Assembly: GCF_004010195.1 (NCBI RefSeq)
Contig: NC_057716.1
Coordinates: forward strand, 15,080,373 to 15,144,372
From: Chiloscyllium plagiosum
Taxonomy: Eukaryota
DNA length: 64,000 nt
Direction of reading: 5' to 3'
In this document: one piece after another, positions 1-59,311 of the stretch
How positions within the stretch are numbered: position 1 is the stretch's first letter
Layout: the number at the start of each line of letters is the position of its first letter
The notes under the pieces: model-generated
Database searches by the model: none
Seen by the model: only the letters and a program-made list of their open reading frames with translations
Told to the model about the DNA's origin: nothing
Translations under genes and position numbers: made by a program

Positions 1-3000
1 AGGTTAAATGCCTCAAGCATTGTGAAAACCTTGTTATCTCCAGCTCCATTTCACTATTAAAGTATTTCAAAAATGTTATCCATGATTATTTGTTGTGTTG
101 TGGCTGGCATTTCCTTGTGTTAACAGCCTCTCAGTCACTGACAGTGTGAATCCCCCCCGTTCCTCAGTCGCATGTTCACCATCCCTCACTTCATGGCAGT
201 ATGGCATCAATCCTACACCACTCCCAACAATGCAACCCATTTAACATCGACGGGAGAGCAGCCAGAGATTCCAGAAGGTGAGCTGGGATTTTGGTGGGTG
301 CAGCGGAGAGTGCAGGTTGTGTAGAGCACTCTGTAAAGTGCAGGTACAGAAACTGAGGGATCGTGGAGTTGATTACAATCTGTGATCTGATGGAGAGAGT
401 GGTGGTGATTACAGTGTTTTGGAGTTGGTGGGGTGGGGGCAGGGGATGTGGTGAATGTTTTGTGTGGAGTGATGGGATGGCGGGGGATGAGAGCTGTCCG
501 GGATGGGGTGAGGTAGTGCTGAACATTTTCCACAAGAGTGGTGTACATTACTTTAGATGCTAGTGTGATGCTCCAGCTAATTTTCTTAGTTCTGTGCTCC
601 TGAGCTGTATTCAAAGCTTGGATAAATCTGTGAAAAGAAGTTGGGTGCTAATACAGCAAACAGCCTGTGTCTGCATATTCCTGGCCATCTGATCCAACTA
701 TCATTTGGTAAAACTAGCAATAAAACATTACAAGCTCCTGTATAAATATTGTGGATGTACAATAATTAAGTGTGACCTCAGAGTCCTGAGGCACATTAGC
801 CACAAAATTGTGTCAGAGGCCTTTCTCCATAAGATAACATCATTATCTCAAAGGTTCAGTTGGCCAGGAGATACAACATGAATTGTGAATCTCGAGAACC
901 TTTTCAATTTATTCCTCTTTCTTAGCAGCAGTGTTCCCATTCTAATTTTAAGAACTTGTTGGATTTACATGCTACTTGCCATTGAATCTCTGCAGAGTGT
1001 TGGGTTCATTATTCATAATTTTTCTTTTACAATATCATAATTGTGAATGCCAGTTCAATCAATCAGCATTTCTTGGAAAAGAAAACAAATTGAAATGATG
1101 TATCTCTTTCCTGCAGGAGACTTTTGTTTTGGAATTCACAAAATGACAACTTTTAAACATTAATTTCAATCATGATAGTATTCCTCAAGAACTAATCATT
1201 CTTTCTTTCTCTTTAAGTTGAATTCACTTGACCTTGTTTCTCTGCTTCCTTATTTTACGACATGGGGTAAACCCTCCTGCTTAATTTAAAACCAGCAACA
1301 CAGAAAATATTTATCCCATGCAGTAATCTGTAGAACTTAAAATGGCCAAGAACTATTTAAAGTAAAATTAACAAATTTATTTCTTAAAGTATAACAGAGA
1401 ATAATTAACTCACAACTATTTACAAGTCCTTCCTCTAACCTATCTTATACCTTCCCTTCTATAATACTACTCTGATAAAACTCCCAATTAAGATTTACAA
1501 AAGAACACTTCTTATCTCAAAACCAGCCTGCTTTCAGTTTTCACTGAATTCCTGTCTTTTCTTCTTCTTGGGGATCCTGCTTCACAGGTTGCTGATCGAT
1601 AAAGGTACCTTTTAAGAGAGCTATTTTCAGGGCAGTATGCAGATGCATTTGGCTCGGCAGTTCTCCTCTCAACTATTCAACTTTCCCTGGTCTTATACTC
1701 CCAAAGCATCAGATTGTGTCATTAGCTTTTAAGATTATCAATATACTAAATTCAAATTTGATTGGAATTTGGTATTTTTTAGGGTATATTTTAAACTGAT
1801 TGGCCTAATTCAAATCTGTTTTGTCATTTCCTGCTACCCCAATAGCTGCAGCACATGTTACATTGTGTCTTATTGTGAACACTTGGTGCTGTCACTGCTA
1901 GCTTTTGCTCTCTCAAAGGTAATGTACATCCACATCTGCATAACACATAGAATCCATTTGTTGATCCCAGCACAAGTTCTGTTCCAATGAAAACGCATTG
2001 TCTGCTCCCTTGCTGCCATGAGTGCACATGTTCAGTAACTTTATGCAGTGAATGATCTTCAAGTTGAAAGTGCAGTATACACTCAAAGTAATGGCACAGA
2101 CCAAAGGCTGCCTCACTCTTGCAAGACCTGGCGTTATATGGTGTAGGAGTCCCAGGAGATCCGTGTCAGGTACATGTCATTCTATAAACTGTTCCCATGA
2201 CTCATCGACTGGTCTGCTGAAAATAATGCTCCACTATACCTGGAATTACTATAAAAGTTAAATATTTTAAAATAAGTGTCCAAAATTCCACAATTCACCT
2301 CATTTTCAGACTTAGTTACATTGAAAGAATGGAACAACTTTTCATATTTAACAAGAATGACTTTTATTACAAGTAATTAGACTCTAGTTATTGGTAAACA
2401 GTTATAAACTGTTAACATAAAACTCTGTATATTAAAACTCTAGTTCTCTTATAAACTTCCCCTTACACACATACACATACGGGCAGGGAGGAATAGGTAT
2501 AGGTGAAGGAATACTAGAAGGCAGTTCATTGTTTCCAATTCATGGGTTGCTGAAATTATCCTTATGATTACCATGATGGTCAGAATGTTGCTTCTCAGCT
2601 AGTTTTCTCTGGATACTTCCACTGGTTTGCAAGAGACACAAGGTAGCCAGTTTGCTTACAAAAGATCTTTGCCTTAGTTAAAATATCAACTTACCATAAT
2701 TGCTGAAGAAAAGGTGAACTGGATATGTTCAGGTGTAAAATGGGATTTGACTGCAGAAAACAGGGGAGACTGTTATCTTATACCCCACTCCAAGCTGTTG
2801 AATTACCTGAAAACCAATTACATAGTTGATGGCAGATAAGAGGCTTCTGCGATGATAACTGATTACTAGTTCATAGACTATTAAAGTTCTTGATGCCACT
2901 CAGTTGCACCTGCACAGAGAAACCCTTGGTTCCAATTCATCTGCAAGCACTTCTGCTATGCTGATTCAAATTGTTGTTTGCAAATGGTTGATTTTCAAAT

Positions 3001-13250: not shown

Positions 13251-14292
13251 CCATCATCCATTAACAGTCTTGCATTGCACAAGCTTTATAATAATCTTTT
13301 TCTAGGTTGGTCCGCTAACCTGGCCTTTGAGGAAATGAGTTCAAATGCATTCAGTAACTCATCCTGAAACCTGTTTGTGTCAATTTGACTTGTATAATCT
13401 AGATGGAGTTTAAAGATCTCCATTACAGTATCATTTCTTTTTATTATAAGCTTTTCTTATTTTCTGATCAAGATACTGTCCAACTATATAGCCACTGCTA
13501 GGGACCTTTAAACAATCCAATGAGTGTTTTCTGACTCATATTTCTTGTCTCCACCCATACTGGTTCCTTTCCTGATCTGCTCAGCCAACGCTCTTGCTCT
13601 CTCACATCTTCGTGGTTTTATTATTAGCCTGCTCCTCCTTACTAGTTTTATTTATCTTTGTGAAATGCTAAATCCCCTGGAATTAACACTTAATTAGCTC
13701 CCAACATTTTTCACCATGCTCCATGACTCTGAAGTAGGTATTAGATCGATAATAGTGTTTCTACCAACAGTGAAGTGTAAAGTGAAAGTGAGTTTTTGAA
13801 TTTCACAACCATTGTTGCACTGTGAACATCTTGAATCAGCTCCAGAACAAAGAGCAGGGAGAGTCGATTCTGGATGTTTCTAACATATTATTCTCTTCTT
13901 CCTTCCCAATAAATGCTTCTGGAAGTTAAGACAGTGGGATCAATTATGCAAAGCATTTCCTGCTAAAATTTAAAGCATGCATCCAACTAGATAAGATCCT
14001 GCAATATTCACTGTATGTATCTTCCTAAAAGGATCTGCAGGCACAGATTTAAGGACAAAGCAACCTGGTAGTTTGGAAGTCCGCAGAATGAAATAAACAG
14101 TCTTCCTATAAACCCACACATCCACCCTCACTCATCCAATTCTAGCTGTGAATCTCCAATCCTCCACCAGCCCCACCAGTCAACTGAGGAAGTTGGTCAC
14201 AGTGTGTGACAAGTTGGTTTAATCGCTGCGCCTGTCTGAACTCCAATCTAATCAGTGAAATGATAAACACCAGGAAATGTCTGCTTTATATT

Positions 14293-14298
14293 TTTAAT
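14293..14298 (-). terminator. Candidate polyadenylation signal ATTAAA of A
   Basis: About 215 nt after the stop; at the homologous position in B. Confidence 0.45.
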
Positions 14299-14511
14299 GT
14301 GATCCACAGAATACAAGATAACAACATATACTAAAGGACAGAACATTTACAAATTATCTCCCAGTTACAGTAAAATTTACAGATAGGAACCCCAGGTCCC
14401 TTCACTCCTATTAATGAACAAATAAAGTACAATTGATAACATTTTCTGTAATATGAATGAGGTCTTCTTGTGTTCAAATCAAGCTCAGCTTTTCAGAAGT
14501 TGCTTTCCTGG

Positions 14512-14538
14512 TTAGGATCTTGAATCATCATTTTGTTC
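14512..14538 (-). CDS. A terminal coding exon EQNDDSRS*
   Basis: ttccag|GAA; homologous to the terminal exons of B and C; followed by a homologous 3'UTR. Confidence 0.75.
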   Translation of the reverse strand, partial: EQNDDSRS

Positions 14539-17500
14539 CTGGAATGAACACAATCATGGTCATGGTCATTTTCAGATGAATTGAGTTCAGTATGAGTTTA
14601 GTGTGTTATGATCATGATCGAGAGACAATTCTCTGACACAAAGGTCTGGTTTATACTTACGTTTGATGACACATCAAGCAATGTTTCTGTTGACTTGCTG
14701 TTCCACTGTTAAAAACAAATTAAGATTCGTCTGCTTATTAAAGGGAATCATATCTTTCTTCTGTTATTGAGCATTGAAATTGTCTTTGGACCAAAGGTTC
14801 CTCTGATTATTAAGCCATTAGTGAGGAAATGTTATTGGTTTAAATTTACAAGGTTGACGCATGCATTATTTAAAAATACAGAGCTGTTCCACGCTTTAGT
14901 ACAATGCAATTGAATCCAAATTTCAACAGCTTATTTGTGTTGATAATATAAACAACATATATTGTCAGACTATACTCACATCTAGAGAATCCTCCATTGA
15001 TGTTTCTGTTGATTTGCCTCTCACCTGGAATATGCAGATTTATGTATTTAGTACTTTCTAAATAATCTTCATTTTTAGATTCAGCTCTAAAACAGCAGTT
15101 TAAATTATATCAAATTGTAAATAAGGTTTTACACCTGTGTTAAAATATTCAGATTACTATGTTTACATAAGGAATTCATGAGTTGTTTTGTAATTAACAT
15201 TGAATATTGGAATTATCTTCATCACGGCTTCATTATAGTGCAGAATTAGGCAATTTGGCCCATTGTGTCTGAATCAGCTGTCTGAGTGAGCGTTGTGACT
15301 TAGTGTCATGTTCCTGTCTTTTCCCATAATACTAAATATATTTCTATTTGTTTCAATTGAACCTGTCTGCATCACATTTCCATGCAGTGTGTTCGAGACC
15401 ACAACTACTCGTTGTGTGAAAACCTTTTTTATCTTATATCGTATTTGCATCTTTTTCAAATTACCTGATATCTCTGTTCTCTCATTCTTGATGCATTTAT
15501 GACCAGGGAACAGTTTCTTTCCATCTAGTTGGTCCTAACCTGTTTTGATTTTGAAACCTTCTATCAAATTTCATTTTATAGTCTTCTCCTTTCCAAGGGA
15601 AACAGACTCAATTTCTACAATCCCATGATTCTATGAACTTCTCCAATCTATTTTCATAACTGAAGTTTCTCCTCCATGAAAACATTATTGGAAAACTCTT
15701 CCACACTCTCTCAAATACATACACATTCACCTTGATGTATGGTAACCAGAACTGTATGTTGACGATCTCACTGTATGGCTTTTAAACCAAAGCTTTCATT
15801 GATTATTAAGCCAAAATGAAGAAATATTAACTCTTGCACCTTCTATTCTCTAGTCATCCATTTAATTTACTAAAAGCTCTGAGCTGACTTTATTGCGATG
15901 CAGTTAATTCCAAGTACACTTTTTTTGGATAAATCATTAAATGACAGAAGATCTCAGATGATACTCACATTTAGAGAATCCTCCAGTGAGGTTTCTGTTG
16001 ACTTGCTGTTCACCTGAATTAAGATATGGTAGAAAACTTAGCATTTTGCAAATAATCTCGATTTTTAAAATTATCTCTAAACAGAATAGTTAAATTATAT
16101 CAGATTATAAATCAGAAAGTGACAGCTCTTTTATGTTCAGAGTCTGGATTCAGTGATTCAGTGCTGGAGCAGAGAAATCCTTGCCAAACATTTCCTGTGC
16201 GCCCCAGACCCTTCTGCCCCAACGACAAACAACACACAGACAAACACAAAGTGGGACTATGGGGTCGATGGACAGACAAATGGGAGCTGACATTCTCCAT
16301 TGATGACTATGTATTTTGTCAACACTGCTAGATAATTTATATTCAATTGGATGTGGAGAATGACAGCAATGTTGTCCTCATGAAACCATCATTTTCATCC
16401 CTCCAGTTATTGGAAACTTCTCAATGTTAGAAATCAACACCATCCACTTAACATCAATCCAACAACTGAAGTTGATAACTATCGGATGTTGTGAGAGTTA
16501 GCTCATTTGTTAGGTGGTGAGAGTTTGATGCGGAGCAATGCCAACAGGATAAGCTCAATCCTTGCGCCAATTAAGATAATTTTTGGAACCATGCCCCTCA
16601 TGCTGCCCTATGGCACTAACCATCGTACACAACCCTCAGTTAATGAGCATGGTCCATGAAAAGCTAGCGAGATTAATATAAAATAATAAATACTCACATT
16701 GGGAGCATCCTCAAGGGATGTTTCTGTTGACTTGCCATTTGCCTGGAATAAAATATTCAGATTCATCAGGTTATTGCAGGGAATTAGTTTAATATTTTGT
16801 AACATATTTTGTGTTACTGAATTATAGTTAAGCGAATTAAATTTTAAATTACTACTACAATATCACATAAAATGCAATTATATTTTATTATAATATTATA
16901 ACAGAAATTATTTTAAGCCAATGATTTCAGTGATTAATAAACCATAAATTAGGGTTTATTTATGCTTAAATTTATAGGTCATAGACATGCATTTAACTAA
17001 ACGAAATACAACTACTGTCTCAGACTCTATTCTGATGCAGTTGAATCCAATTTTCGACAGTTTACATTTGTTGATAGTTATCTGACAAAAAAAATTAGAT
17101 TATAATTACATCAGGAGATTCCTCCAGTGATGATTCAGTTAACTTGCTTTCCTCCTGGATTAAAATAATCAGATTGGAATGTTTAGCATTTTGAAATGTG
17201 GAGTCAACTCAAAACAAAATCATTCAATGTCTACAGGTTCCAAATGTGGAAGTGACTACACTTTGCGTTTCCAAGTTGACAGTCAATGGCTCAGTGCTTT
17301 ACCCTTGTGAAAGGCAGTTAGCTTAGTTGGCTGGACAGCTGGTAAGTAACACCAACAACGTCGGCTCAATTCCTGCACTGGCTAAGGTTGCTGCAAACGA
17401 CTCTCCTTCTCAAACTCTCCCCTTATCTGAGGTGTGGTGACCCTCAGATTAAAACCACCACCAGTTGTGTCTCTCGCGAACAAAGGAGCAGCCTATGATC

Positions 17501-19217
17501 TGCTAGAGCTATGGGTGGAGTGGAGGAATCCTTATTGAACATCTAAAATATAGTAATAATCAACACAATCTGTGGGACTGATGGATAAATGAATGGAGGC
17601 TCTGAGTCTCCTATTGATTGAGATTCATTGTAAAAAATCTGCAGATCCATCTAGGAATGACAAATAATTAGTGTTTAGCATTGGTAAAATTGTAAGAGAC
17701 ACTGCTCTTCTAATGTCATTGCTTGTGCCTGTCCATCCCTATGGATTTCAGTTAATTTTGTCTTCAGGGAAGAACAAACTTTCTCTGTATTTGCGTTTTT
17801 GCATCAGACTGACTCCCCTGCCTTAGTATCTCAGACTAAAACAATTTGCTGTCTGATATTCCACTCTGACACATTTAGAACCTGGAGTTGAAGCATTTTT
17901 ATGAATATTTCTGATCAATAAGTAAATAATCTGACAGATTTCTAGTTTATACTCACATTAAATGATTCCTCGTTTAACATCTCCCTTGACTTAGTTTTGA
18001 CCTGTGATGAAAAGTGAATATTTCTCTATTTAGCACAGCAAACCAATGAGAAATGTAAGTTATCTGCAGTATTAAAAATCTCAAGAAGTGGATAGGTATA
18101 TTTATGAGATTACCTCATAGCTGTTTTCACTTGACTCTGAAACGTCGCTGTTGCTGTCAACAGTCTTCAAGCCTCGACACTCCACAACAACATCGACGAC
18201 CTCATCAGCAAAATATTCAACACGGCTTTTGCACAAACCTTTCTCCTGTCAAAGCAGAATTGATTAAAATTACACTCAGTAAATCCTATGATGCAACTCC
18301 CCCTCAGTACACTTGCTGGTTTGGGTGTGATAATGTGATTTTCAAACTTACCGCGGTGTTTCTGGGGCGGAAGTAACAGCTGGCATCATCAAACTCTAGT
18401 CCAGAATTCTTGGAGCAGACAGTTTCTTTCGCAGAGAATGTTAAATCCACATTGTACGACAGTTTTCCAGTGCGATGAATCTAATGAGGGAATCAGTTTG
18501 TCATTATCTGACTGCATCTAATGTCATTCAACCCTGCCTAAAAACCTGTTTCACGCATTCGTTATGACTCGACCTCACTATACTATTATTCTCTTAGCTG
18601 ACCTCCCACATCTTCCATTCCTAAAATTGAGGTCAATCAGAATTCTGGTGCCAGTACCTAACTGAAATCCAGTTCAATTTATCCCAATGCTCATTGTCTT
18701 ACATTAAGTACTAGCTAAGCAGCACCTTGAGTGTAAAATTACTATCTACTTTCAAATGTCTGCACAGTATCATCTCTCCCAACCTCCAAACTGATTCACC
18801 AGCCTAAGTGTAATATTACATTCTGCTCCTGTTTAATAATCAGTACTAAACTGCACTCAGTAATATTCTTGTAGAGTTTAGAGTGTGAAACAGACTGAGG
18901 CCAGGCCACACTTACATCCTTCACCCTTCTCCTGGTTATCCCACACAGATTGCTGGTCTCGGTGATTTGGTTCAATTTTATAACAGACGCTCTCAAAGCA
19001 TCCTTAGGGCTCGGTATTCCTGTCGATAGAGAAAAGGATAAGTTGTACAAAACATTACAGAACTCTTCAGCGAATTATTTTCCACCTCGGTGATATCTGA
19101 GTGAGTGAACCTCATTGGCAATAACTCGTTGCTTGATGAGGAGCCGCTCTCTCTCTGGGACCTACCTGAGCAGTGGACAATCTGCACTGCAGCAATGGTG
19201 AGGAGGAAGGCTTTCAT
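14512..19217 (-). CDS. spp2: SPP2/spp24-like secreted cystatin-domain phosphoprotein, paralogue A (11 coding exons, 237 aa, long acidic S-x-E repeat tail)
   Basis: Exons 19217-19166, 19019-18916, 18480-18352, 18245-18114, 18001-17957, 17154-17110, 16742-16698, 16013-15969, 15024-14980, 14705-14661, 14538-14512, all GT-AG, phase 1 then all phase 0. Protein: MKAFLLTIAAVQIVHCSG-IPSPKDALRASVIKLNQITETSNLCGITRRRVKD-IHRTGKLSYNVDLTFSAKETVCSKNSGLEFDDASCYFRPRNTA-EKGLCKSRVEYFADEVVDVVVECRGLKTVDSNSDVSESSENSYE-(6x15 aa)-EQNDDSRS*. By recall, it resembles mammalian SPP2 motifs ALSASVAKVN, MDLEFRIQETTC, CRSTVRMSAEQVQNVWVRC and the following Ser/Glu cluster. Confidence 0.82.
14661..14705 (-). CDS. A exon 10, 45-nt repeat exon WNSKSTETLLDVSSN
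   Basis: ttaacag|TGG ... AAC|GTAAGT, phase 0. Confidence 0.78.
14980..15024 (-). CDS. A exon 9, 45-nt repeat exon VRGKSTETSMEDSLD
   Basis: ttccag|GTG ... GAT|GTGAGT, phase 0. Confidence 0.78.
15969..16013 (-). CDS. A exon 8, 45-nt repeat exon VNSKSTETSLEDSLN
   Basis: attcag|GTG ... AAT|GTGAGT, phase 0. Confidence 0.78.
16698..16742 (-). CDS. A exon 7, 45-nt repeat exon ANGKSTETSLEDAPN
   Basis: ttccag|GCA ... AAT|GTGAGT, phase 0. Confidence 0.78.
17110..17154 (-). CDS. A exon 6, 45-nt repeat exon EESKLTESSLEESPD
   Basis: atccag|GAG ... GAT|GTAATT, phase 0. Confidence 0.72.
17315..17515 (+). mobile_element. Second tRNA-derived SINE family (intron 5 of A)
   Basis: GTTAGCTTAGTTGGCTGG...CAATTCC head; related copies at ~3410-3615(-), ~16497-16630(+) and ~39873-40080(+). 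Confidence 0.6.
17957..18001 (-). CDS. A exon 5, 45-nt repeat exon VKTKSREMLNEESFN
   Basis: cacag|GTC ... AAT|GTGAGT, phase 0. Confidence 0.78.
18114..18245 (-). CDS. A exon 4 (C-x17-C loop plus Ser/Glu cluster)
   Basis: Acceptor ttgacag|GAG, donor GAG|GTAATC; 132 nt. Confidence 0.85.
18352..18480 (-). CDS. A exon 3 (first disulfide loop CSKNSGLEFDDASC)
   Basis: Acceptor ctcattag|ATT, donor GCG|GTAAG; 129 nt. Confidence 0.85.
18916..19019 (-). CDS. A exon 2 (cystatin helix)
   Basis: Acceptor tcgacag|GA, donor GAT|GTAAGT; 104 nt as in B and C. Confidence 0.85.
19166..19217 (-). CDS. A exon 1: signal peptide MKAFLLTIAAVQIVHCS(G)
   Basis: ATG, hydrophobic core, donor CAG|GTAGGT, phase 1; present in all three copies. 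Confidence 0.85.
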
Positions 19218-19307
19218 TCTGCCTCTTGTGTGATCAGCTGGCTGCTTTCTCAGAGTAAAGGAGCTGCTTCTCTCTCTTGCTCTGCCCTTTCCTTGCTGCA
19301 TTCAGTT

Positions 19308-19354
19308 TTTATATCCTGCACCCCTACCACATTCAAACACTGACTCATATTTAC
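19308..19354 (-). promoter_or_regulatory. Proximal promoter of A: TATA box, RUNX, AP-1 and Forkhead motifs
   Basis: Minus-strand TATAAA 19313-19308 (~90 nt before ATG); ACCACA 19326-19331; TGACTCA 19341-19347; TATTTAC 19348-19354. Confidence 0.6.
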
Positions 19355-19589
19355 TCAGTTTTGGTGGTTCTGGACAGGGGAAGCTGTTGCCAAGAGGTTC
19401 AAATATGGACAGAGCTTCCTCCCAGTAACGTCATCATGTTTAGATTTAGTGAGATCAGAGGTTCCTCCTCAGAATGTGGAATAATCAAATGACAGAGCAC
19501 AGGAACTGGTCATCTCTAAGTGTACAAAGGCACCTTCAATCCAATGTGAATTGCTCATAGAGCTGAGCTTCCGATTATATATCTGTGCC

Positions 19590-31980: not shown

Positions 31981-32013
31981 TTAGTGTCGAGATCCTGAAT
32001 CACCACAGCATTC
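31981..32013 (-). CDS. B terminal coding exon (frame 0 ECCGDSGSRH*; shifted frame (R)MLW*)
   Basis: ttccag|GAA; homologous to the A and C terminal exons. Confidence 0.7.
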   Translation of the reverse strand, partial: ECCGDSGSRH

Positions 32014-34662
32014 CTGGAATGAGCAGAATGAAGACAACGATCATATTCCGATAGACTGTGTTCAATGTTTTATTGTTATAGATGATCATGAACGAGAGAC
32101 AATTCTTTGGTAGAAAATCGCAGTTTTATACTCACGTTTGAAACCTCCCGCAGTGACCAGTCTTTTGATTTGCTTGACACCTGTATTAAAAAAATCAGAT
32201 TATTGATTTAATGCCAGGAATCAATGAATCATTTTGTTATTTTTCTAATCTATTAGACCCTTCTCTGAATAACATAATTCTATATTGTGACGTTTAAAAT
32301 GACGATGCAATGTTAGCTCCTTCAATTTTGAAGTTGGAATTCAGACACTCAGTACTGGAGTGGACAACTCCTCATCAAGTATCTCTCACTCTCCAGCGCA
32401 GTGATAATCAATCCAGTTTTGGAACAGTGGTACTGTGGTATTGGTGGATACACTAATGGGGAATTAGATTGTTGATCAGTTTACATTTGCTGCATACTCT
32501 CAAGAACACAGGAACTATTGAAAAACAGGAAGTGCTGGAGAACCTCAGCAGGTCTGGCAGCATCTTTGGAAAAAGAAACAGATTTAACGCTTCAAGGATA
32601 GTATGACTCTTCTTCAAAAGCCATGCTGGACTTAACATAGCATTTCTATTTCTTTCGCCACAGCCCCTGCCAGAGCTGCTGGGATTTGCCAGCACTTACT
32701 TTCAGAATCTGCATTGTTTTAACTTTGCACTGCAATAAATATCTGATAAATCTTGAACATCTAAAAGTTGATTCCATTACATTGTTCTAGTGTGAAATGA
32801 TATTCACGAGAAAGCATAAGCATCTCTACTTAGGCTTCTCTCAAAATCCTTTGACTAGCACTGGAGAAGATTCAGCAAGATTCATGTGTTTGTCTTCCTT
32901 CCCCCTACTGAATCTGGGTGATACTAAATTCAATAAAAACACCACACAGTACTGTGACAGGCTCCACACTAAACAGAGAAATCCAATTTATTGTCGACAA
33001 TAATGTTCTGGTGAAAATCCAGATATGTACTTACGTTTGTAGACTTTTGGACGAGAGGTTTTTCTGGCTTTCACCTGAATTTAAATAGAAATGTTTTAGT
33101 CCTGGAGTAGATTTGATGAAGCACTAGTTTTAGCATCACCACTAAATCAATAACCCAAAAAAAGATTAAATAATGAGATTTTAAATTGTTAGCTTTCTGT
33201 GATGCGGTGCAATGTTTCAGTGTGGAATGGCGAAAGCTTCACCAGATATATGGACAGTTCATGGTGGAACAAACATGAGTGCAGTCCTGGTACAGTATGG
33301 TCATTGGTCAAAGTATTAATGTAATAAAATGGACAGTGTTATGTTAACCTTAGATAATAAAGACTAATTATTTCCTTGAAGAGCAACAAGCAGTAATAAT
33401 ATTTCTGCGCAGACTTATAGCCAGGAGCGGCTCTGATCTTTGTTCCACTGCAACAAGGGATCGCCGAAGGAAGAGTTTGAAGATTTGAAATACAACTTTG
33501 AGTCGGACAAATCTGAGTCTGGGATAAAATGCAAAGTCAGAGATCCCATTGCCCTGGTGAGTTTAATGGTGAGGTTACCTCGATACTGTTTTCACTGGAC
33601 TCGAAGGATCCACTTCTGCTGTCAAACGTCTTCAACCCCCGACACTCCACGTCAACGTCAACAACCTCATCCGCAAAATATTCAACATGGCTCTTGCAAA
33701 ATCCTTTCGTCTGTCAAATGCAATGGGAGAGTATTAAAGTTATTGATCACAATAGCTTTGGCAATCACTGAGGGAGTTTTCATAACATAATTCATTACAC
33801 ATTCTACTTTTTATTGTATCTCAACTAGAATGCACAACGCTTTCTACCATGTAGTCAGTAAAAATAGCCCTCTCTATGACATAAACCAAGTCATACAGTC
33901 TTTTCTATCAATATGCATCACTCTTTCTATATGATATATCGATAAACATGATCTCTAATTCAGGCCACATCGTCCTTCCTATGACATAAGATCCTTTCTG
34001 TGATATTAACATGATGGTTTGGATGTGACAATGTAATTGAGAACTTACTGCAGGCTTTTTGGTGCGGAAATAGCAGCTGGGATCATCAAATTCCAGTCCA
34101 GAATTCTTGGAGCAGACGGTTTCTTTCACAGAGAATGTTAAATCCACATTGTATGACAATTTCCCTGTGCGGTAAATCTAATGAGAGGAAAACAGTTCAT
34201 GAGTGTCTGACTGTGTCTGGTGCTCTTACTCTGAGCTGATTCACCCACAGCTTAAATGTAATATAACATTCTGCTTCTGTTTAATAAGCTGTGTGGAACT
34301 ACACTCTAATATTCTTGTAGAGTTTAGAGAGTGAAAAAGATTGAGACCAGGCCACACTTACATCCTTCACCCTTCTCCTGGTTATCCCACACAGATTGCT
34401 GGTCTCGGTGATTTGGTTCAGTTTTATAACAGACACTCTCAAAGCATCCTTAGGCCTTGGTATTCCTGTCGATAGAGAAAAGGATAAGTTGTACAAAACA
34501 TTCCATAATTGTTCAACAAATTATTTTTCCACCTCGGTGATATCTGAGGGAGTGAACCTCAATGGCAATAACTCGTTGCTTGATGAAGAGTCACTCTCTC
34601 TGGGACCTACCTGAGCAGTGGACAATCTGCACTGCAGCAATGGTGAGGAGGAAGGCTTTCAT
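31981..34662 (-). CDS. spp2: SPP2/spp24-like paralogue B (7 exons; 171 aa with cationic tail if the 40-nt exon 5 is included, stop at 32002-32000; 164 aa ending at 31981 if it is skipped)
   Basis: Exons 34662-34611, 34465-34362, 34177-34049, 33710-33579, 33074-33035 (40 nt), 32180-32136, 32013-31981. Exons 1-4 have the same sizes as in A (52/104/129/132 nt) with canonical GT-AG. Confidence 0.8.
32136..32180 (-). CDS. B exon 6, 45-nt repeat-type exon
   Basis: atacag|GTG ... AAC|GTGAGT; frame 0 VSSKSKDWSLREVSN, shifted frame (R)VKQIKRLVTAGGFK. Confidence 0.72.
33035..33074 (-). CDS. B exon 5, 40-nt frame-shifting derivative of the 45-nt repeat exon (VKARKTSRPKVYK+1 nt)
   Basis: attcag|GTG ... 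AAAC|GTAAGT; splice contexts match the repeat exons of A, but the length is not a multiple of 3. Confidence 0.6.
33579..33710 (-). CDS. B exon 4 TKGFCKSHVEYFADEVVDVDVECRGLKTFDSRSGSFESSENSIE
   Basis: 132 nt, GT-AG. Confidence 0.85.
34049..34177 (-). CDS. B exon 3 IYRTGKLSYNVDLTFSVKETVCSKNSGLEFDDPSCYFRTKKPA
   Basis: 129 nt, GT-AG. Confidence 0.85.
34362..34465 (-). CDS. B exon 2 IPRPKDALRVSVIKLNQITETSNLCGITRRRVKD
   Basis: 104 nt, GT-AG, 2 aa differences from A. Confidence 0.85.
34611..34662 (-). CDS. B exon 1: signal peptide
   Basis: Identical peptide to A exon 1. Confidence 0.85.
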
Positions 34663-34752
34663 TCTGCCTCTTGTGTGATCAGCTGGCTGCTTTCTCAGAG
34701 TAAAGGAGCTGCTTCTCTCTCTTGCTCTGCCCTTTCCTTGCTGCGTTCAGTC

Positions 34753-34799
34753 TTTATATCCTGTGCCTCCACCACAATCAAACACTGACTCATATTTAC
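34753..34799 (-). promoter_or_regulatory. Proximal promoter of B (same cassette)
   Basis: TATAAA 34758-34753; ACCACA 34771-34776; TGACTCA 34786-34792; TATTTAC 34793-34799. Confidence 0.6.
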
Positions 34800-49348: not shown

Positions 49349-49378
49349 TTAGTGTCGAGATCTTGAATCGTCATATTC
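49349..49378 (-). CDS. C terminal coding exon EYDDSRSRH*
   Basis: ttccag|GAA; homologous to the A and B terminal exons. Confidence 0.75.
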   Translation of the reverse strand, partial: EYDDSRSRH

Positions 49379-52300
49379 CTGGAATTAACAGAATGAAGAA
49401 ATGTTCATTTTCAGATGGACTGAGTTCGGTCCAAGTTAAAGTTTTATTGTTGTTGATAGTCATTATTGAGAGATAATTCTCTGATCCAAAGTCTGAGCTT
49501 ATACTCACATTTAGAGATTCCTCCATCCATGATTCCCTTGATGACATTTTCAGCTGCATTGAAATATTAAGATATTTAGCACAGGGAATCACTTTTCTCA
49601 AACTTTAAAATGATTTCCAAACAAAAGATACAAATAACTTAACGTAGAATGAGAGTAAATTTCCTCTGTTACAGATATGTGATTGTAACTCAGTGTCTAG
49701 GTGAATGGTTGTATAGAACACAACAGTTGTATTTCTACTACACTAATGTAATGAAAGTCCCAAAGTTCATTCACGGTACAACAAAGTATGACACCAAGAT
49801 ACCTTAGGAAATAGTAAGGTAAGTGACCAGAAGTTGGGTTAAAGAGGTACATTTTAAGGATTAAAGGATAAAAATTAGGTCAACAAATCGAGAGGGTTAG
49901 GGAAGGAATTCAAAAGCTTAAGGCCAAGGCAACTGAAAGGACAGCTGCAAATGCTCAAGTGATTAAAACTGGGAATGCACAACAGATATCTTGGAGGTTT
50001 GTAGCGCTTGAGGTGATTACAACATGATTAGAACGCTAGCATATAGTGTATTTGCCAGATCAATGAACTGGAATGATATGGCCTGCGATGGCTTAGTGTT
50101 TCAAAAGGCCAGTTCTCTGCAAGCATGTTTTTTAACTGTCACAAGTCCTAGAGATGACAGTGGGAACACCGTATTTGTAATAGTCATCTATTCAGAATGA
50201 TGTAGCAAGTCATTTCTATCGGGGAATCTTCCAGTTTAGCTTTGCTCCCCTGAAACATTGACTTTGAATTTGTGGTGGTGGAACATTGTGCAAATTCTTA
50301 ATGATGATGGCGTCAACCCCTCCCTCCCTTCCTCTATAAACTCTACCATCTTCACAACTCTCTGAGATATCTGTTCTCCAATTTTGACTTCTTACATTTT
50401 CCTTATTTTGGTCACTACTTAGTTTCAGCAGTTCCTTCATCTGTGAAGGTCATATGTTCTGGAACTCCTTTTCTAAAAATGCTCCTTCTATCTTCCCTGC
50501 TTCGATATAGGCTGTTGTTATATGGGTTCATTTGCTTTAGCCTCCTACTATGGTTGCTTTTGCTTTAGCGTTGAGCAACAAACATATTGGGACCAACTTG
50601 TATTTCGAGTGGACAGATAAAAGGTGGTGCAGACTAAACTGTAATCCTTGCTGTGAGGCCCATGTCATTTTGAGAGTTGTGCCATATCTGTAGAGAATAG
50701 ACAACTTTGGATACTGAGCCAGCACCTAGGCAGCACCAGCTAAGGGCTTGAGAGTTATGGGGGTGGGTGGGGAGGAATGAGGGTGAAATAGATGATCCTC
50801 TATGCAGCTGAGCTGTAAGATCAGACTGAAAGGGAAGAAGAGGAAATTCAGGGGAGGAGGTTTTGCCTTATGAATAGTTGGTACGCAGCATTTTTTGGCC
50901 AGGAAGATAATTTATGTTCATCCTAGTCTGGCAGAAATCATCATATGGTGATTTTATCATGTTGCCAGTATGTCTGCAGCAAATCTTTAAGATCCTCTGA
51001 TTGATTAATCTGAGCCTATTACCAATACATGCAGAATGTGAAAGAACGATATAATCTGTTGGTATTTCTAAATTGCAGTGGCAAATGAAAAAAGGGACGG
51101 AGGTGTCTGAAATGCATGTTATATTTCGGCTCATGACTGGGACACTGAGGCTTCCCCATGAATATCAGCTGTTAGGGGCAGGCAGTCTGCTCACCACTAC
51201 AGGTTTCTGAGCGTAATTTCTCCCCAATTCAATCCATTGCTCACACTGTAAACTAACACGTAGCAATTGTGAGTTCCATTTAACAATTGCACAGGAACTG
51301 GAAAATAGACCACACAGCAAATGCACCAAATCACGCCAACATTTAAATTTAAAAAAACACTTTGCACTCATCATGAAATTATCATCTGCTTAAACAAAGG
51401 GAAAGAGTTAGGAATAGTAAACAGGGATATCAATAGTATCAGCTGTGCTTGGTTAACTGCATAGAATTCTTTGAAAATCTAACATGTGTGTTAGATGGGG
51501 GAATTGGACTATGGAGTATGTACAGATTTTGGGAAAGTCTTTGATAAAGCTTCACAGAACACAATATCAGAAAATATTATGGAATGGAGGGGTGGGAGGA
51601 TTACATTTTGGATCTGGGCACCACTTTTATTTGTTCTGCAATGTAATGCCCTTCATTTTTGTTGTACTTATGGTGGTGGGAGAACAACAGACCAAGATCA
51701 CGTGATTAAATAAAAAAACTTCTGAAGATTGACAGCTTACCTCTTCACTGCTGTTAGTTAATTCCGATGATCCTCCATTATGACTGACTCTTGCTGATGG
51801 TTTTCTGTGGCCTTTTCTGCCTTTCGTGGGTTTGCTGTGAGGTTTCCCTCCTTGAGAAATGTCACTATGCTCTCTGTTACCTCTGTATATATCACTTTCA
51901 CTCCTCAGCCTCTCCGGTGAGTCTCTGTTACCCCTGGCCCTTTTGAACCCATGACATTCAACATCAACATCGAGTACCTCATCAGCTAAGTATTTAACAC
52001 GACTCCTGCATGTAGCTGTCTCCTGCAGAAACAAAAGCCACATTAGGGGTGAGCACTGCTGTGTGTGGTTTCCAATTCCTGAAACTTCATATCTGCTGCT
52101 GCACCGATACGACCTTGAGAAACAGATTCTGAGCCAATGGTCCTTTATTTGGACCGGTACTTTGCAAAATGACAGTGACTTTCTCTTGGATTTCTGAGAC
52201 ATTGTTGTGAAATCAAATTGCAGGTGTCAGGAGCAAACCTCGGTGGAGAAAGCCAATGGGAAGGTACAAAAAATGATGTTTGAGATTTCCCTCTTCTTAA

Positions 52301-55300
52301 GTGCCCTGAGTTTTACTCCAGTTCATACCTTTTCCAGTTAGCATAATTTTCAGGCTGTGTCAGGGAATTGCTATCTAGCACTTTGTGAAGCTTCACGATT
52401 AGGATTGACAGAATGGGTCTTCTCTTCTCCCGTTGCTCTCAGCATGTTTGGGTTAGATTCATTAGTCACAGTGTTAAGCCTGTCCACTGGCTGGAGAACT
52501 TGAGTTGGTCAGATGTGCCACAGTGGGGTGCTAAGTTTGGAGGGCAGTGGGGAGTCCTCCTATGGAGTTGGTACTTGCCACCATAGATCACAGGGTGCCT
52601 GAGCTGAAGATAGTCTCTGACTCTAGCTGGAGGGCAGGTCTACCAGGGTGGCCTGCCCACAACATTTTGCCATACCTGCAAGGGGATGCCTCTCATGAGG
52701 TTTCAGTTGACTATTCCGAATCTTCCTGGGGAAAGTTGGGAAGTTGACAGGCTTTCCACTGCGCACATTTGTACATGATTAAATGATGCCACCCATCCCT
52801 CAGCCTCAAATCATAGAACCCCAATGGTACAGAGAGAATTTGAAACTGACCATCCAGACAGCATCCCACCTTCTCCCCTTATCCCAACATTTTCCATAGA
52901 CAACCCATCAACCAGCACACCTCTGGACACTGTGGGGCAATTTAACATGGCCAATTCACCTAACCTGCACGTCTTTGGGCCGGAGCACTCAGAGGAAACT
53001 CGGACAGAACAAGGGAAAAATATGCAAACTCCACGCAGTCACCCAATGGTGGAATTGAAGCTGGCTTCCTGGTGCTGTGAGGCAGCAGTGCTGACCACTT
53101 TATCATCATACTGCCCCACCACACCCCATCCCACCCCACAATCCCCTCCCCACCCCCATGCTTCCATAGCATTTAATTCCACTCTCTGTTTTCATGCTGA
53201 CCTGAGACTCCCTGTTAGCACAAAGATGTATCCCCTGACCCTGGGCAAATATCTGGCCTCCAAGCTACTGATATCATCCTGCTGTGCATTGACCAGACTG
53301 TCTTTTGGGAGGGGAGAGATCAGGATTACCAAACCTGCAACACCAGACTTTGGAGATTTGTTGCGCAGTGTGATTCTGCTGCTGCTTTGCTGTTCCTCAA
53401 AGTTTGTCTCTAACACGCCAGGGCCTCAATTGACAATTTGCCCTTAAAAATATTTCCCTTGCTTCCAGTGATCATTAGCAAATGATGGACATCAGTAGAT
53501 GAATAACTTGGAGAGGAGATACTGGGAAAGGAGGACAGGGAGGTTCCCTGCCTTGTGTTGTTCCTCCACTCATTTCAGTTCCACTCAGAAATTGTTGGAA
53601 TAAAAATTGAAAATTGGTGCCTTCCAGTGTACACATAGAGGTGTGAGGGTGAGGGTGCTCTGACATTCCATACATAACATTTGACTCCTCAACATGAACT
53701 GTCATTCTCTCCTGGTCTTGCAGAGCTCTGTTGGCTTCTCTGCTGTCTTCTGGCTATTGGTTCATTGGTGTCAGCAATTATCAAGAGTCCCAGAGTGGGT
53801 CTAAGCCCCAACAACATCACTGACATAAATGAGAGCCAGGAAAGAGTTAACTGGATCAGTCCTCCAGTGCTCTTCAGTGATGCGTTCTATTTTTACAGTG
53901 CCAGAAAAAGGAGTAAAAATATTGACATTAGAACAAAATTGGAGATTTTCCCATGAAAACTACATCAGTGAGCACAAAACATAGATTCATGGCACCCATG
54001 ATGCTACCTAATGTGGCCTCTTGGTGTTGAAACTGCAATAATTGCATGGATGTTTAACCTTGTCGTGAAATAGAATAATGAGCCATAATTTCCAGTAATG
54101 TGCAGACAAAGCCCAAATATGAGAACTAGAATAGATTCAAATTCATAAGAATTGTCCCACATGCTTAACAACTCAAAGAATTCACAAAGTACAACTCCTG
54201 TTAACTCTGAGCATTGAAATACACCATCAACAGTAAATGGCGTTATTTCTGAAAGGAACATTCTTCTGCCTCGCCAGCACACCCAATGAGGATAAGTTTG
54301 TTTGCAGTTGCCTCCCCTCATTCACTGTAACCCACACACTTTAGAGAAATAGAAGTCCTCTGTAGGAGGCAACAGATAACCATTTCAAACTTTGAATACA
54401 TCTTGGTCACAGTGCTCAGAACAGCCAACGCAACTTCACACGGAGCTGAACACTATATAACAGCCCTGACTTTGGTGTGACAAGGCTCTACTGAATGAGA
54501 CCATTTATTCACTCTATAATGAAGAAAATATGCTGCTGATCTTGGAAAGTGAACCCATATGACCCCCTGGTTTAAAAAATAAACGTCTGGTAAATGAGGC
54601 TTGCACTCACAAACAAAGTGTTTGTCATCGTTTGGTGTATATTTCACAGCAATCCACTCACGTTAACAGGGGCAGTGAAGAAATGAAGGCAGAAATGTTT
54701 GTCTGTCATGAGCTCAGTACTTACAGCAATCTTTGTGGGCCGGAAACTGCAGCTAGAATCATCAAACTCCAGCCCAGAATTTTTGGAGCAGACGGTTTCT
54801 TTCACGGAAAATGCTAAGTCCACATTGTAGGAGAACTTTCCTGTGGGAGAAAGCTAGATGAAGGAATAGATGTTAGTTACATGCCCTCAAGAAATGTAAT
54901 TGATTATGCTCTGAGATTGATCAGTTAATGGTATAAATATATACTTATACAGATAAATACTGATAATGTCAATAAAGGGAACAAGTGGATCTGGCATAAT
55001 TAAATTTCTGGAAGACTTTGGAAAAAGTCACACACATGAGATTAATAAACAAAATCAAAATGCATGGAATGGGGCAATATAACAGCACGGACTGAGGATT
55101 GGTTAACAGGCAGACAGCAAGGATAAATGGATTATCCTCAGGTTGGCAGGCTGTGACAAATAAGATGCCACAAGGATCAGTGCTCAGATCCTATCAACTT
55201 TTCATCAATTTGTATCAATGATTTAGATGTGGGAACCAATTGTACTATTTCCAAGTTTGCAGATTATTACAGGGTATGGGAATGTGAGATTTATGGAGGA

Positions 55301-58300
55301 TTCAAAGAGGCTTCAAGCAGACTGAGTTGGAATATATAGCAGATGGAATGTAATGTGGATGAGTGTGAGGCTATCCACTTTTATAGGTGGGAGGGAGACT
55401 CAGCGTATTTCTTAAATGGTGAGAAATTGGGCAATGTTGATGTGCTAAGGTGACTTGTTCGTAAGTCACTGAAAGCTGACATGCATGTGCAGCAAGCAGT
55501 TGAGAGAGCATGCAGTGTGTTAGCCTTTATTGCAATTGCTTCAGTTGTACAGAAGACTGGTAAGACTGAACCAGCAGTATTGTGTACAATTCTGGGCCCC
55601 TTAACCAAGGAAGTACACTCTCACCATGATTTTACTGCTCCTCGGATGCGCCTGAACTGCTGTGCTGTGCTTTTCCAGCACCACTCTAATCTAGACTCTT
55701 ACCATTGAGGCAGTGCAGTGGATGATCTGCAGACTGATGCCTGGTATGGTGGATTCTCCTTTGAGGATAGATTGAAGAGACAGGGCCTGAATTCTCTAGA
55801 ATTTAGAATAATTTTTGGGTAACAAGGGCTCCAAGGATCGTGCAAAAGTATGTGTGTGAAGTAGATGATCAGCCATGATTCAGACTGGGGAAGCAGACTC
55901 AAGGGGCTGAACGGCCTACTCCAGCTCCTAGCCTCCTATGTCATTCCTGCAACACAGGAGGTTTCCTGCTCCCTGAATACCCGGCTCTCCATCAGATGAA
56001 TGGTTACGTCAGGGCCTTGTTGATGGATTTCCTTCAGGTGATTCATGGTGAGTGTTGGTGCCCTCAAAAAACTATCATGGCAGGCAACAACAGAGGATCC
56101 TCACCCAGCTCATCTCTCTGGCCAGGAGTCATTTGGACAGATTCCCAGCTCTACTGCCCTTGGGTCACTGAAGTACAATATGACTGACACATAGTGTACA
56201 TTATTAAAAATCTGTTAAAGCTATACATACTGAGAACTGAACTGTGACAAATTAGCTGATCATGAGGAAGAATTTTTGCATCCAGAGAGTGGTGAATTTC
56301 CAGAATTCTCTGCCCAAGAGGATTGTGGCACCTCAGCTGTTCAATATGCTCGAGGCCTAGACCAATAAATTTCAACAAAGTAAAAATATCAAAGACTATG
56401 TGGGTAGTGCATGAAAATAGTGTTGAAGTTGATCAGCCATGATCTAGAATTGTGCAGCAGGCTTGACAGACTGAATAGCCCACTTCTGCTTCAGTTTATT
56501 ATGTCCTTATGAATGTTGGGAGGTGGTGTACAATGCAGAACAGTATCCTTCTGCTTGAATTCTCATTGGGGTCTTAATAATATTACAATATGTGCATGTC
56601 ATGTTTGCCATGCTGAGTCTTCATTCATGCCTTTGTTATCTCTAGGCTTGGCTATTTCTAATGCTGTGTCCTAGCAGCCGCACACTATAAACTTTGCGTT
56701 CATCTCAAATTCTACCACCTCTGGTGCATTCACCCATCATTCTGTGCTTACTGACCTACATTAGTGAAGTAAGTTTTTAATTGTCATCCTTGTTTACAAA
56801 TCCCTCCAGGTCCCTATCTCTGCAATCTCTTCCAACCCTGTAACCCTCCGTGATATCTAATTCTGTTTTCATCAACTCCCACAATTATAAATCTTCAACA
56901 TTTGCAGCAGCCCCTTAAGCTTCCTGAGTCCTAAATTCTGGAATTCTCTTAATCCTCTCTACCTCTTTATCTCTCTTCCCTTTCTTAGGACGATTTGGAA
57001 AGGGGGACATACAGTGAGATCTGGGTGTCCTTGTGAACTTGTTGCTGAAAGAAGCATGTGGGTGCAGCAGGCGATGGAGAAGGCAAAGTTGACTTTCATA
57101 CACAGAGGATTTAAGTACAGAGGCAAGGATGATTTGCTGCAATTGCGCAGGGCCTTGTGAGACTACATCTGGAACGTTGTATGCAGTTTTGATCTCTTTA
57201 TCTGAAGGAGGATGTCCTGGCTATAGAAGAAGTGCAACAAAAATTTACCAGACTGATTCTTGGGATGGAATGTATGAAGAGAGACTGGGATTGGTTAGGC
57301 CTATATGAACTATACTTCAGAAGCATGAGAGGGAATCTCATAAAAACCTGTGCAATTCTGACAGGACGAGACAGACAAACACAGAAAGGATGCACATGAT
57401 GACCAGGGTGTCCAGAACCAGGGGTCACAGTCTAAGGATATTAATAGGTCATTTGGGACTGCAAGGATGAGAAATATCTTCATTGGTGAATGGTGAGCCT
57501 TTCTCTGTCAAGTGGTTGAGGCCAAATTATTGAATGCATTAAGAAGAAAATCGATGCAGTCCTTAGTGATAAAGAGCTCAATATGTTTGGAGAGCAAAAG
57601 GGAACAGGGTACTGATTTGGGTGGTCAACTATAATTATATTGAATGGTGAAGCAGGCTCGAAGGGTTAAATGGCCAATTCCTGCCCCTATACGCCATTGT
57701 TTTTATGTTTAAGGTGCTGTCTTAAAATATGCCATTGTGACCAAAGATTTAATTATCTGTCCTAAATATCTCAACATATCTAAATATCATATCATAATCT
57801 TAGGGCTGAACAGGCTCTTTGTGGTACCTCAGCTGCTTGCTGCATCACATTGCTGGTTAGGAGGAGTGACCAATGGACTCCTCTGGTTGGGGTACCCATT
57901 CCATCTTCAAACTGAATACTCTGCCCCCACCTCACCTGCATTAGACCTTCCAAAGGTCACCTCAGTCAGAAAACAGTTTGCTCCATGGTCACGAAGAGAT
58001 TAATAGGGATGCAGTGAATAGTGATAATGCAGATTGTAATTAAGAGGTTGCAATTGGTGAGGGGTGTGTGTGTTCGGCAGTTGTAGTTGGTTGGTTGTAT
58101 GAGTGGACGGTGACGGAGTGGGGACTGGGTATAATGGGGGTGTAGGTTGAGTGTGATGGAAGAGGGTTGGATGTGATAGGGCAGGGATTGGGTGTAATGG
58201 AATGGACATTGTTGTCTTTGAGTTGGGATATATGTGTGTGTGCTCTTCTCAGGAGGCGGTGGCCTGCTGAGGACAGTGTGCCACAATATTCCAATGGAGA

Positions 58301-59174: not shown

Positions 59175-59264
59175 TCTGCCTCTTGTGTGATCAGCTGGCT
59201 GCTTTCTCAGAGTAAAGGAGCTGCTTCTCTCTCTTGCTCTGCCCTTTCCCTGCTGCGTTCAGTC

Positions 59265-59311
59265 TTTATATCCTGTGCCTCCACCACAATCAAACACTGA
59301 CTCATATTTAC
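59265..59311 (-). promoter_or_regulatory. Proximal promoter of C (same cassette)
   Basis: TATAAA 59270-59265; ACCACA 59283-59288; TGACTCA 59298-59304; TATTTAC 59305-59311. Confidence 0.6.

Follow-up and report, generated by a model that had tools for sequence, protein, structure and literature searches.

Acidic, disordered chains rich in S-x-E motifs, like the tail described here, are known from the alpha-s caseins CSN1S1 and CSN1S2 and from the acidic SCPPs SPP1 and DMP1. In SPP1 and DMP1, most of the acidic sequence lies in one large last exon. Caseins arose by exon duplication, with many small exons and exon skipping (PMC12470106). SCPP genes share an exon–intron plan with first coding introns in phase 0, derived from the 5′ exons of sparc-L, and phase 0 is their commonest intron phase (PMC9122587).

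Secreted phosphoprotein 24 of bony vertebrates (SPP2/SPP24) has a signal peptide and a four-cysteine cystatin-like domain followed by a Ser-rich S-x-E cluster. The gene is single-copy, and six named proteins carry 3–6 S-x-E each, with no 15-residue module seen in them. According to PMC13188829, the protein is liver-derived and circulating, bears an Arg-rich end, and is in mammals a component of calciprotein particles; the Arg-rich C terminus is typical of sarcopterygian and lamprey SPP2 rather than universal, and is absent in most catshark duplicates. The tandem expansion of the spp2 family, its gain of S-x-E, its expression in mineralising chondrocytes and the analogy to the SCPP expansion have already been published by Debiais-Thibaud et al. 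2026 (PMC13188829), who give the position of the cluster by sh3bp4/arl4c/nme9/vps8 and list XP_043550482.1—the protein of gene A discussed below—in Table S14. The main text of that study is silent on exons, introns, isoforms, splicing, frameshift, reading frame, modules and conversion or concerted evolution; absent from it are the exon-module origin of the tails, the frameshifted basic tail of paralogue B and the near-identical 5′ ends of the paralogues.

Gene A: a cystatin-like domain with a six-module tail

The window—the whole stretch of 64,000 nucleotides of Chiloscyllium plagiosum DNA that was analysed—bears several spp2 genes. Gene A, a shark spp2.3-type secreted phosphoprotein 24, lies on the minus strand in 11 exons (19217–14512), and the translation of this model equals P0035 (RefSeq XP_043550482.1) letter for letter. 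Exon 1 (19166–19217, 52 nt coding) encodes a predicted signal peptide, seen as a hydrophobic helix over residues 3–14 of the structure model, and this N terminus aligns with those of SPP2; intron 1 is in phase 1. The cystatin-like domain begins in exon 2 (18916–19019, 104 nt), runs through exon 3 (18352–18480, 129 nt, Spp-24 domain) and ends in exon 4 (18114–18245, 132 nt); spliced contigs connect each exon of the gene to the next. It scores 35.1 bits against the Spp-24 cystatin-like domain PF07448 (cut-off 26), and C74, C87, C100 and C118 are invariant in 56 aligned sequences. The end of exon 4 adds the ancestral Ser-rich stretch with two S-x-E, at S133 and S137, a stretch that bony-vertebrate SPP2 also has after its domain. 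The structure model has a pLDDT of 92–98 over residues 21–120 and of 43–56 over the tail. Its best Foldseek matches are cathelin and cystatin folds, the cathelin domain being the closest solved one, and the acidic, S-x-E-rich tail is predicted by the model to be disordered.

Behind the domain follow six tail exons of exactly 45 nt, all in phase 0 and with AG/GT borders: exon 5 (17957–18001, ‘first’ class), exon 6 (17110–17154, middle class beta), exon 7 (16698–16742, middle class alpha), exon 8 (15969–16013, middle class beta), exon 9 (14980–15024, middle class beta) and exon 10 (14661–14705, ‘last’ class). The six phase-0 exons read by the first-pass annotation are confirmed. Its consensus, x-x-x-K-S-T-E-T-S-L-E-D-S-x-N, describes six related exons but fits exon 5 least, which is also the outlier in pairwise identity (23–38 of 45 nt among the six). 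The last exon (14280–14538) holds 27 coding nucleotides (14512–14538) and the 3′ UTR, along which contigs extend to about 14280. A module contributes 15 residues, and most modules have two S-x-E, at positions 5–7 and 9–11. From exon 4 to the stop we count 12 S-x-E, the number given before; ten of these lie in the 98-residue tail, as against 3.4 in 20,000 shuffles of the same tail (p=0.0001). With 10 K+R and 24 D+E, the tail bears a net charge of −14—calculated as about −34 with phosphate on all ten tail sites—and no Arg-rich C terminus.

All six module exons are joined in spliced contigs, which supports their inclusion in transcripts, a point named for checking in the original claim. Tail joints fall at the predicted GT-AG introns in seven of seven cases in X1, X2 and X7 and in six of seven in X3, at contig depths of 140–441. 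The source runs carry no RNA label on record; the molecules behind the contigs were spliced, since the joints fall at GT-AG introns. In X1–X3 this tail depth falls well short of the depth summed over exons 1–2, which are shared among paralogues; this speaks against the functional reading given below, although depth is a poor measure. One joint, 14515–16717 (depth 31–47, with non-canonical ends and unknown letters in between), probably stems from a contig of a paralogue and was disregarded.

Comparison with SCPPs

Gene A shares with SCPPs the S-x-E motifs and a D/E-rich region, with its 12 S-x-E and a mature pI of 4.63. Its exon–intron plan differs: intron 1 is in phase 1 and exons 2–4 encode a cystatin domain, whereas SCPPs derive from sparc-L and lack a folded C-terminal domain. 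By analogy, gene A would work like an acidic SCPP and is not a member of that family, in agreement with the likeness without kinship first proposed. The further proposal of a convergent phosphoprotein origin on a cystatin scaffold stands for the amplification of a short phase-0 exon, but not for the phosphoprotein as such, as bony-vertebrate SPP2 already has S-x-E motifs. Another parallel are elasmobranch scpp and the elephant-shark Sparc-L repeats, mineralisation genes with independent S-x-E amplification and gene conversion, which differ in being another gene with ameloblast expression (PMC9122587). Their highest density is 5.1 SxE per 100 residues (PMC9122587), compared with 10 per 100 in the last 120 residues of gene A, with different denominators.

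The module across sharks and rays

The first-pass annotation described the tail for gene A. It is no peculiarity of this gene: the module is also present in the other spp2.2/2.3 genes of the cluster in the window and recurs across sharks and rays, mostly in 1–6 copies per spp2.3 protein. One example is the spp2.2-type paralogue C (49349–59174, minus strand), with an extended exon 4 of 282 nt (51741–52022), one acidic-frame module (49509–49553) and a last exon from 49378. Among non-basic tails, 90 of 124 have a length of 15n+8 to 15n+13. Counted without a motif filter, 289 of 350 blocks have S5-x-E7 and 244 have S9-x-E11; an earlier count of 276/277 was discarded because its motif filter made it circular. 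Before phosphorylation, the tails of paralogues E and F would carry little net charge (−4 and −2), a point against the role proposed below.

Co-duplicated introns and history of the module

Flanking introns were duplicated together with the modules. Part of intron 9 (14790–14979) matches introns 6 (16911–17109) and 8 (15780–15968), and the acceptor-side part of intron 8 (15045–15125) matches intron 7 (16037–16115). Downstream of exons 6, 8 and 9, all three pairs reach z values of 5.8–10.5, attained by none of 300 shuffles; the introns that precede exons 8 and 9 reach a z of 10.5, and blastn aligns 16038–16115 with 15048–15125 at an E value of 5e-11. The intron matches named earlier thus hold. 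Across all six modules, only 4 of the 15 pairs of downstream flanks and 3 of the 15 pairs of upstream flanks exceed all 300 shuffles, so that the introns around the remaining copies have for the most part drifted apart.

The module tree groups copies by position—first, middle, last—with strong support in only 2 of 22 branches. The spp2.2/2.3 ancestor would have had one module, the three classes would have arisen before the paralogues split, and extra middle copies, common to five carpet-shark species, would then have been added in gene A. Candidate sources of the module (the 3′ end of exon 4, spp2.1 exon 5, the last exon) were rejected, as none of five targets matched clearly (p 0.04, 0.04, 0.20, 0.48 and 0.45).

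Paralogue B: the same module in a predicted second frame

The neighbouring paralogue B, overlooked in the earlier annotation, is predicted to bear a frameshifted, basic tail. It is of spp2.3s1/s2 type, with exons 1–4 at 33579–34662 on the minus strand, and its whole spliced model, based on splice sites and RefSeq models, equals P0136. Its first tail exon (33035–33074) measures 40 nt and leads from phase 0 to phase 1. The following 45-nt module exon (32136–32180) is read in phase 1, although its acidic frame is still open, and in the last exon (31981–32013) the used frame stops after four codons while the old one is open to the usual end. The 40-nt exon is thus predicted to change the frame in which the module is read, so that B would have a K/R-rich tail of net +12, compared with −14 in gene A; in the structure model, pLDDT is below 50 from residue 126 onward. 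The B module is identical to acidic copies in 28 of 45 nt, the best of 2,000 shuffles reaching 25. The resemblance of the 40-nt exon to the module is marginal (25 and 24 of 40, with 24 and 23 in the best shuffles). In both B and D, the first module would long ago have become 5 nt shorter, which would move the next module into the second frame, and the same DNA would then yield a tail of +11 to +12 without S-x-E.

Basic tails in this register are found in 31 annotated proteins from 16 shark and ray species. None of the 23 acidic module copies has a stop in the acidic frame, and 14 of them have one in the shifted frame, most commonly at position 10 (10 of 23); five basic tails, from four rays and a sawshark, end exactly at this position. 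PMC13188829 states that, apart from spp2.1, the catshark duplicates seem to be without an Arg-rich end, whereas the tails of catshark s1 (P0049) and s2 (P0154) are basic here (net +10 and +14, zero S-x-E). We considered B as the keeper of an ancestral bony-type basic tail and rejected this: the acidic frame is the one in which both outgroups, spp2.2 and elephant shark P0170, end, the old frame of B is still open, and the 51-nt phase-0 exon of spp2.1 is unrelated.

Probable gene conversion and the domain tree

A tree of the domain from 63 proteins sets spp2.1 and spp2.2 apart as long-branched groups, and gene A falls among genes that include catshark s1–s7. Basic-tail genes are scattered over this tree with 8 changes and do not form a single clade (p-AU 0.0002), so that gene conversion or repeated origins are needed. 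The 5′ ends of seven paralogues are 89–100% identical, including spp2.2, whose exon 2 is only 66–69% identical. These near-identical ends point to gene conversion among the paralogues, which can explain the scatter.

Proposed function and rival explanations

We consider it probable that gene A is a transcribed spp2.3-type gene whose six-module tail makes its secreted product a likely heavily phosphorylated, calcium-phosphate-binding protein of mineralising cartilage. Fam20C, whose recognition motif is of S-x-E type (PMC7948968), would phosphorylate the disordered tail, and the phosphorylated tail would hold amorphous calcium phosphate and limit or place crystal growth around chondrocytes, as proposed by likeness to osteopontin and caseins. 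Catshark spp2.3s3–s7, which carry acidic modules, reach 260–2708 TPM in Meckel's cartilage and close to none in blood or liver (Table 2 of PMC13188829), these genes not being one-to-one orthologues of gene A. For B and D, the basic tail likely anchors to polyanions such as proteoglycan or phospho-tails.

Module number might instead reflect near-neutral churn, in which symmetric 45-nt exons come and go freely and any tail with a few S-x-E would do as the soluble spacer of a cystatin domain that binds BMP. Copy number does vary from 1 to 6 among neighbours, paralogue P1 has two module copies without a GT donor, P2 is pseudogene-like, and mammalian SPP2 works via BMP2 binding (PMC13188829). Nevertheless, we regard this as rather unlikely: six modules are retained in the 237-residue form of five species, S5/E7 and S9/E11 persist where other module positions drift, and the elephant shark arrived at 23 S-x-E by repeating a different unit. 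The version of the first-pass annotation—a new plasma or tissue phosphoprotein with its length set by regulated exon skipping—appears quite unlikely. Symmetric phase-0 exons permit skipping, alpha-s caseins use it (PMC12470106), and here it shows only as exact 15-residue drop-outs in five of eight chosen protein pairs from RefSeq models of relatives (catsharks, a skate, a stingray). However, no skip joint is among those listed for gene A in four runs, whose contigs drop rare forms and with one joint not shown, and bony-vertebrate SPP2 already has S-x-E. The product should probably not be sought in plasma, as catshark spp2.3 genes reach 0–0.17 TPM in liver and blood and are high in cartilage (PMC13188829).

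That the basic tails arose several times, are annotation artefacts or act as cathelicidin-like antimicrobial peptides is suggested by their scatter on the domain tree, by the cathelin-like fold and by a splice model of B that comes from models rather than reads. We hold this to be improbable: all 31 basic proteins have a KQ motif at the same place in the tail, with a near-constant VYKRVKQ, conversion can account for the tree, the hydrophobic moment does not exceed shuffles in six of six tails, and the basic-tail catshark genes s1 and s2 are highly expressed in cartilage (PMC13188829, Table 2).

Beyond the probable role of gene A in mineralising cartilage, a wider account is tentative and, in our view, possible rather than probable: sharks and rays would have made an SCPP equivalent of their own out of spp2, by using one 45-nt exon in two frames, with phase-0 stacks giving tunable polyanionic phospho-tails and an ancient 5-nt deletion giving a conserved polycationic tail, both co-secreted by chondrocytes and binding each other or bridging proteoglycan and mineral to control calcification. 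Gene conversion would keep the domains alike while the tails are old and distinct, so that ‘recent independent duplications’ might partly be an artefact of domain trees.

Implications

Conversion probably distorts domain trees of the spp2 cluster, which calls for caution in their use. The basic-tail genes would split the spp2.3 clade—treated as one in the published description (PMC13188829), as far as its main text goes—into two functional classes, and with the frameshifted sister, one exon would encode oppositely charged tails, among rays as well as sharks. Cartilaginous fishes mineralise their cartilage without the SCPP set of bony fishes, and the spp2.3 genes are the published lead candidates for this task. 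The exon module would explain how phosphate-carrying capacity is varied in steps of 15 residues, and offers a natural dose series of one to six modules.

Gene A and its modular tail

A tandem cluster of genes encoding the Spp-24 domain on contig C7 of the genome (G000:C7) includes the window. Gene A, an spp2.3-type member, comprises 11 coding exons on the minus strand (19217 to 14512), which are spliced at AG/GT sites. Its spliced coding sequence of 714 nt translates exactly into the protein P0035—RefSeq XP_043550482.1, named 'secreted phosphoprotein 24-like' with the source label Chiloscyllium plagiosum. The PF07448 score of this protein exceeds the family cut-off, and four Cys are invariant in 56 shark, ray, and bony-vertebrate sequences. 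The structure model displays a confident cystatin-like domain for residues 21–120, with cathelin and cystatin as top fold matches, and a tail of low confidence without secondary structure. In a domain tree of 63 proteins, gene A is found among spp2.3 genes, separate from spp2.1 and spp2.2.

The core anatomy described in the first-pass annotation is right, and the tail is real and expressed. Exons 5–10 are the six claimed exons of 45 nt, all of phase 0, and the count of 12 S-x-E motifs from exon 4 through the stop is reproduced. The 98-aa tail bears 10 S-x-E, whereas its composition would give 3.4 (p=0.0001). Co-duplicated intron flanks were likewise recovered where they had been proposed, downstream of exons 6, 8, and 9 (z 5.8–10.5) and, for exons 8 and 9, also upstream (z 10.5). 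Other flank pairs have mostly diverged: four of the 15 downstream pairs and three of the 15 upstream ones exceed all 300 shuffles.

For transcription, contigs from four sequencing runs—at most 4 samples from 2 studies, presumed to be RNA—were placed on 13900–19400 at 90% likeness. All seven joints of the predicted tail introns are present in runs X1, X2, and X7 and six of the seven in X3, at a depth of 140–441. Since the tail joints lie at the predicted introns, the alternative that these exons are left out of transcripts does not hold. No module-skipping joint appears among the listed joints of the four runs, one joint not being displayed and contigs losing rare forms; the suggested length tuning via exon skipping thus finds no backing for gene A in these contig joints.

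The module as a family trait

The 45-nt phase-0 tail exon—the module—is a family trait found beyond gene A. When 464 kb of DNA were scanned with a profile (score >8; one such match in five shuffles of a 364-kb part), copies appeared in nine paralogues: six in A, four each in P1, E, and F, three in G, two in P2, and a single full copy in each of B, C, and D. In the spp2.2-type paralogue C, exon 4 (51741–52022, minus strand) is extended, at 282 nt, and has a K/R/G-rich insert ahead of its S-x-E end. No module is present in spp2.1, whose tail is Arg-rich: a 51-nt phase-0 exon precedes an Arg/Lys-rich last exon. This gene (G000:C7:15206231-15218746, plus strand) lies within the cluster, at the switch from minus to plus orientation. 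Two divergent spp2-like genes lie about 1 Mb off (G000:C7:14033288-14047344, plus; 14173657-14183463, minus), and no module was found by the scan in the 100 kb around them. By protein sequence only, elephant shark SPP2 (P0170) carries 23 S-x-E derived from a different 5/15-residue repeat—PMC13188829 gives 21 at one point and thirteen at another—and six named bony-vertebrate SPP2 proteins carry 3–6.

Among shark and ray proteins (P0001–P0160), 90 of 124 non-basic tails have a length of 15n+8..13, with n mostly 1–6; S5-x-E7 is kept in 289 of 350 blocks and S9-x-E11 in 244 of 350. A 237-aa form with six modules is common to five carpet-shark species. In a tree of 25 copies plus 60-nt flanks, strongly supported on only 2 of 22 branches, modules from different paralogues cluster according to their place in the tail: there are first (100/99), middle alpha (91/97), and middle beta (89/91) groups, and the 'last' copies fall on the 'first' side. 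The order in gene A is first-beta-alpha-beta-beta-last; hence, the extra copies would be beta duplicates. Modules also die, as the GT donor is gone from two P1 copies (G000:C7:15049236-15049740, minus). One of these has its donor changed from GT to TT and is extended in RefSeq P0058; in the other, sequence similar to a repeat present elsewhere in the window stands in place of the donor. Paralogue P2 (G000:C7:15075107-15079593, minus), which adjoins an assembly gap, is probably a pseudogene, its exon 2 being frameshifted and its exon 3 interrupted by a stop.

A second reading frame in basic tails

The most surprising element is a conserved frame switch from acidic module to basic tail, as read from the sequences of B and D and the predicted splicing of B. 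The first tail exon of B (33035–33074, minus) has only 40 nt, and therefore the following 45-nt exon (32136–32180, minus) is read in phase 1. Paralogue D is its twin, with a shifted-frame module after a 40-nt exon (G000:C7:15241210-15241894, plus). The spliced models match RefSeq P0136 (B) and P0146 (D) exactly. Both tails contain zero S-x-E, with net charges of +12 (B) and +11 (D), and the mature pI is 9.8–9.9 versus 4.6 for gene A.

Nucleotide identity marks the 45-nt exon of B as the module: it agrees with acidic copies at 28 of 45 nt, where the best among 2,000 shuffles reaches 25–26, and the surrounding region matches the last module, last exon, and UTR of A at 70% over 551 nt. The old acidic frame of B is still open to its usual end. 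The acidic frame is the one in which both spp2.2 (paralogue C) and elephant shark terminate, so the basic frame appears to be derived. Skipping of the 40-nt exon in B or D is predicted to restore the acidic frame.

Basic tails occur in 31 of 168 proteins (163 with anchor), with KQ at the identical tail position in all 31; by source labels, these proteins belong to 12 species of sharks and 4 of rays, and no skate is among their sources in this survey. In five of the 31, the tail stops once nine residues of the shifted module have been read; at the next position, 10, this frame has a stop in 10 of 23 acidic copies. The catshark genes spp2.3s1 and s2 are of the basic-tail type, with the shifted module doubled in s2; in Meckel's cartilage, s1 and s2 reach 1109 and 2692 TPM and the acidic s3–s7 260–2708 (PMC13188829). 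Counting against the frame switch, the match of the 40-nt exon to the module is only marginal, and the domain tree does not unite the basic-tail genes as a clade (p-AU 0.0002).

Near-identical 5′ ends

Eight paralogues share 94–100% identity over 100 nt upstream plus exon 1. The start of intron 1 follows with 89–99% in seven paralogues and 72–78% for F, and the starts of introns 3 and 4 fall to 40–82%, B/D excepted. These near-identical stretches of upstream sequence, exon 1, and intron 1 lie at 19166–19317, 34611–34762, and 59123–59274, and in other paralogues. Even spp2.2 has the near-identical 5′ end, although its exon 2 is only 66–69% identical to the others. This gradient suggests that the 5′ ends were homogenized by gene conversion, which would account for domains clustering by lineage while tails retain old classes.

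Relation to known systems and possible role

The spp2 expansion, the SxE gain, the cartilage expression, and the SCPP analogy are already reported in PMC13188829, which lists XP_043550482.1. Its main text makes no mention of exon, intron, isoform, frameshift, reading frame, splic-, conversion, concerted, or module. Among the matches listed, with subscription journals and theses outside coverage, there was no other literature on shark spp2 structure. SCPPs are defined by gene plan and sparc-L origin (PMC9122587), and gene A has neither; caseins (PMC12470106) are a parallel to its module tail. The part of PMC7814152 considered holds nothing decisive for this comparison.

S-x-E/pS is the Fam20C motif, by which caseins and SIBLINGs bind calcium (PMC7948968), and mammalian SPP2 is a calciprotein particle constituent and BMP2 binder (PMC13188829). 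What is established for gene A is its architecture, its splicing, and the conservation of the S-x-E positions; a phosphoprotein role, partly published already, is plausible. The secreted protein would likely take up to ten tail phosphates, for a net charge of about −34. The basic sisters would likely be anchored to proteoglycan or phospho-tails, which is the weakest step of this mechanism. The phosphorylated A tail would hold amorphous calcium phosphate and regulate crystal growth near chondrocytes, where nucleation and inhibition of mineral would be equally plausible effects.
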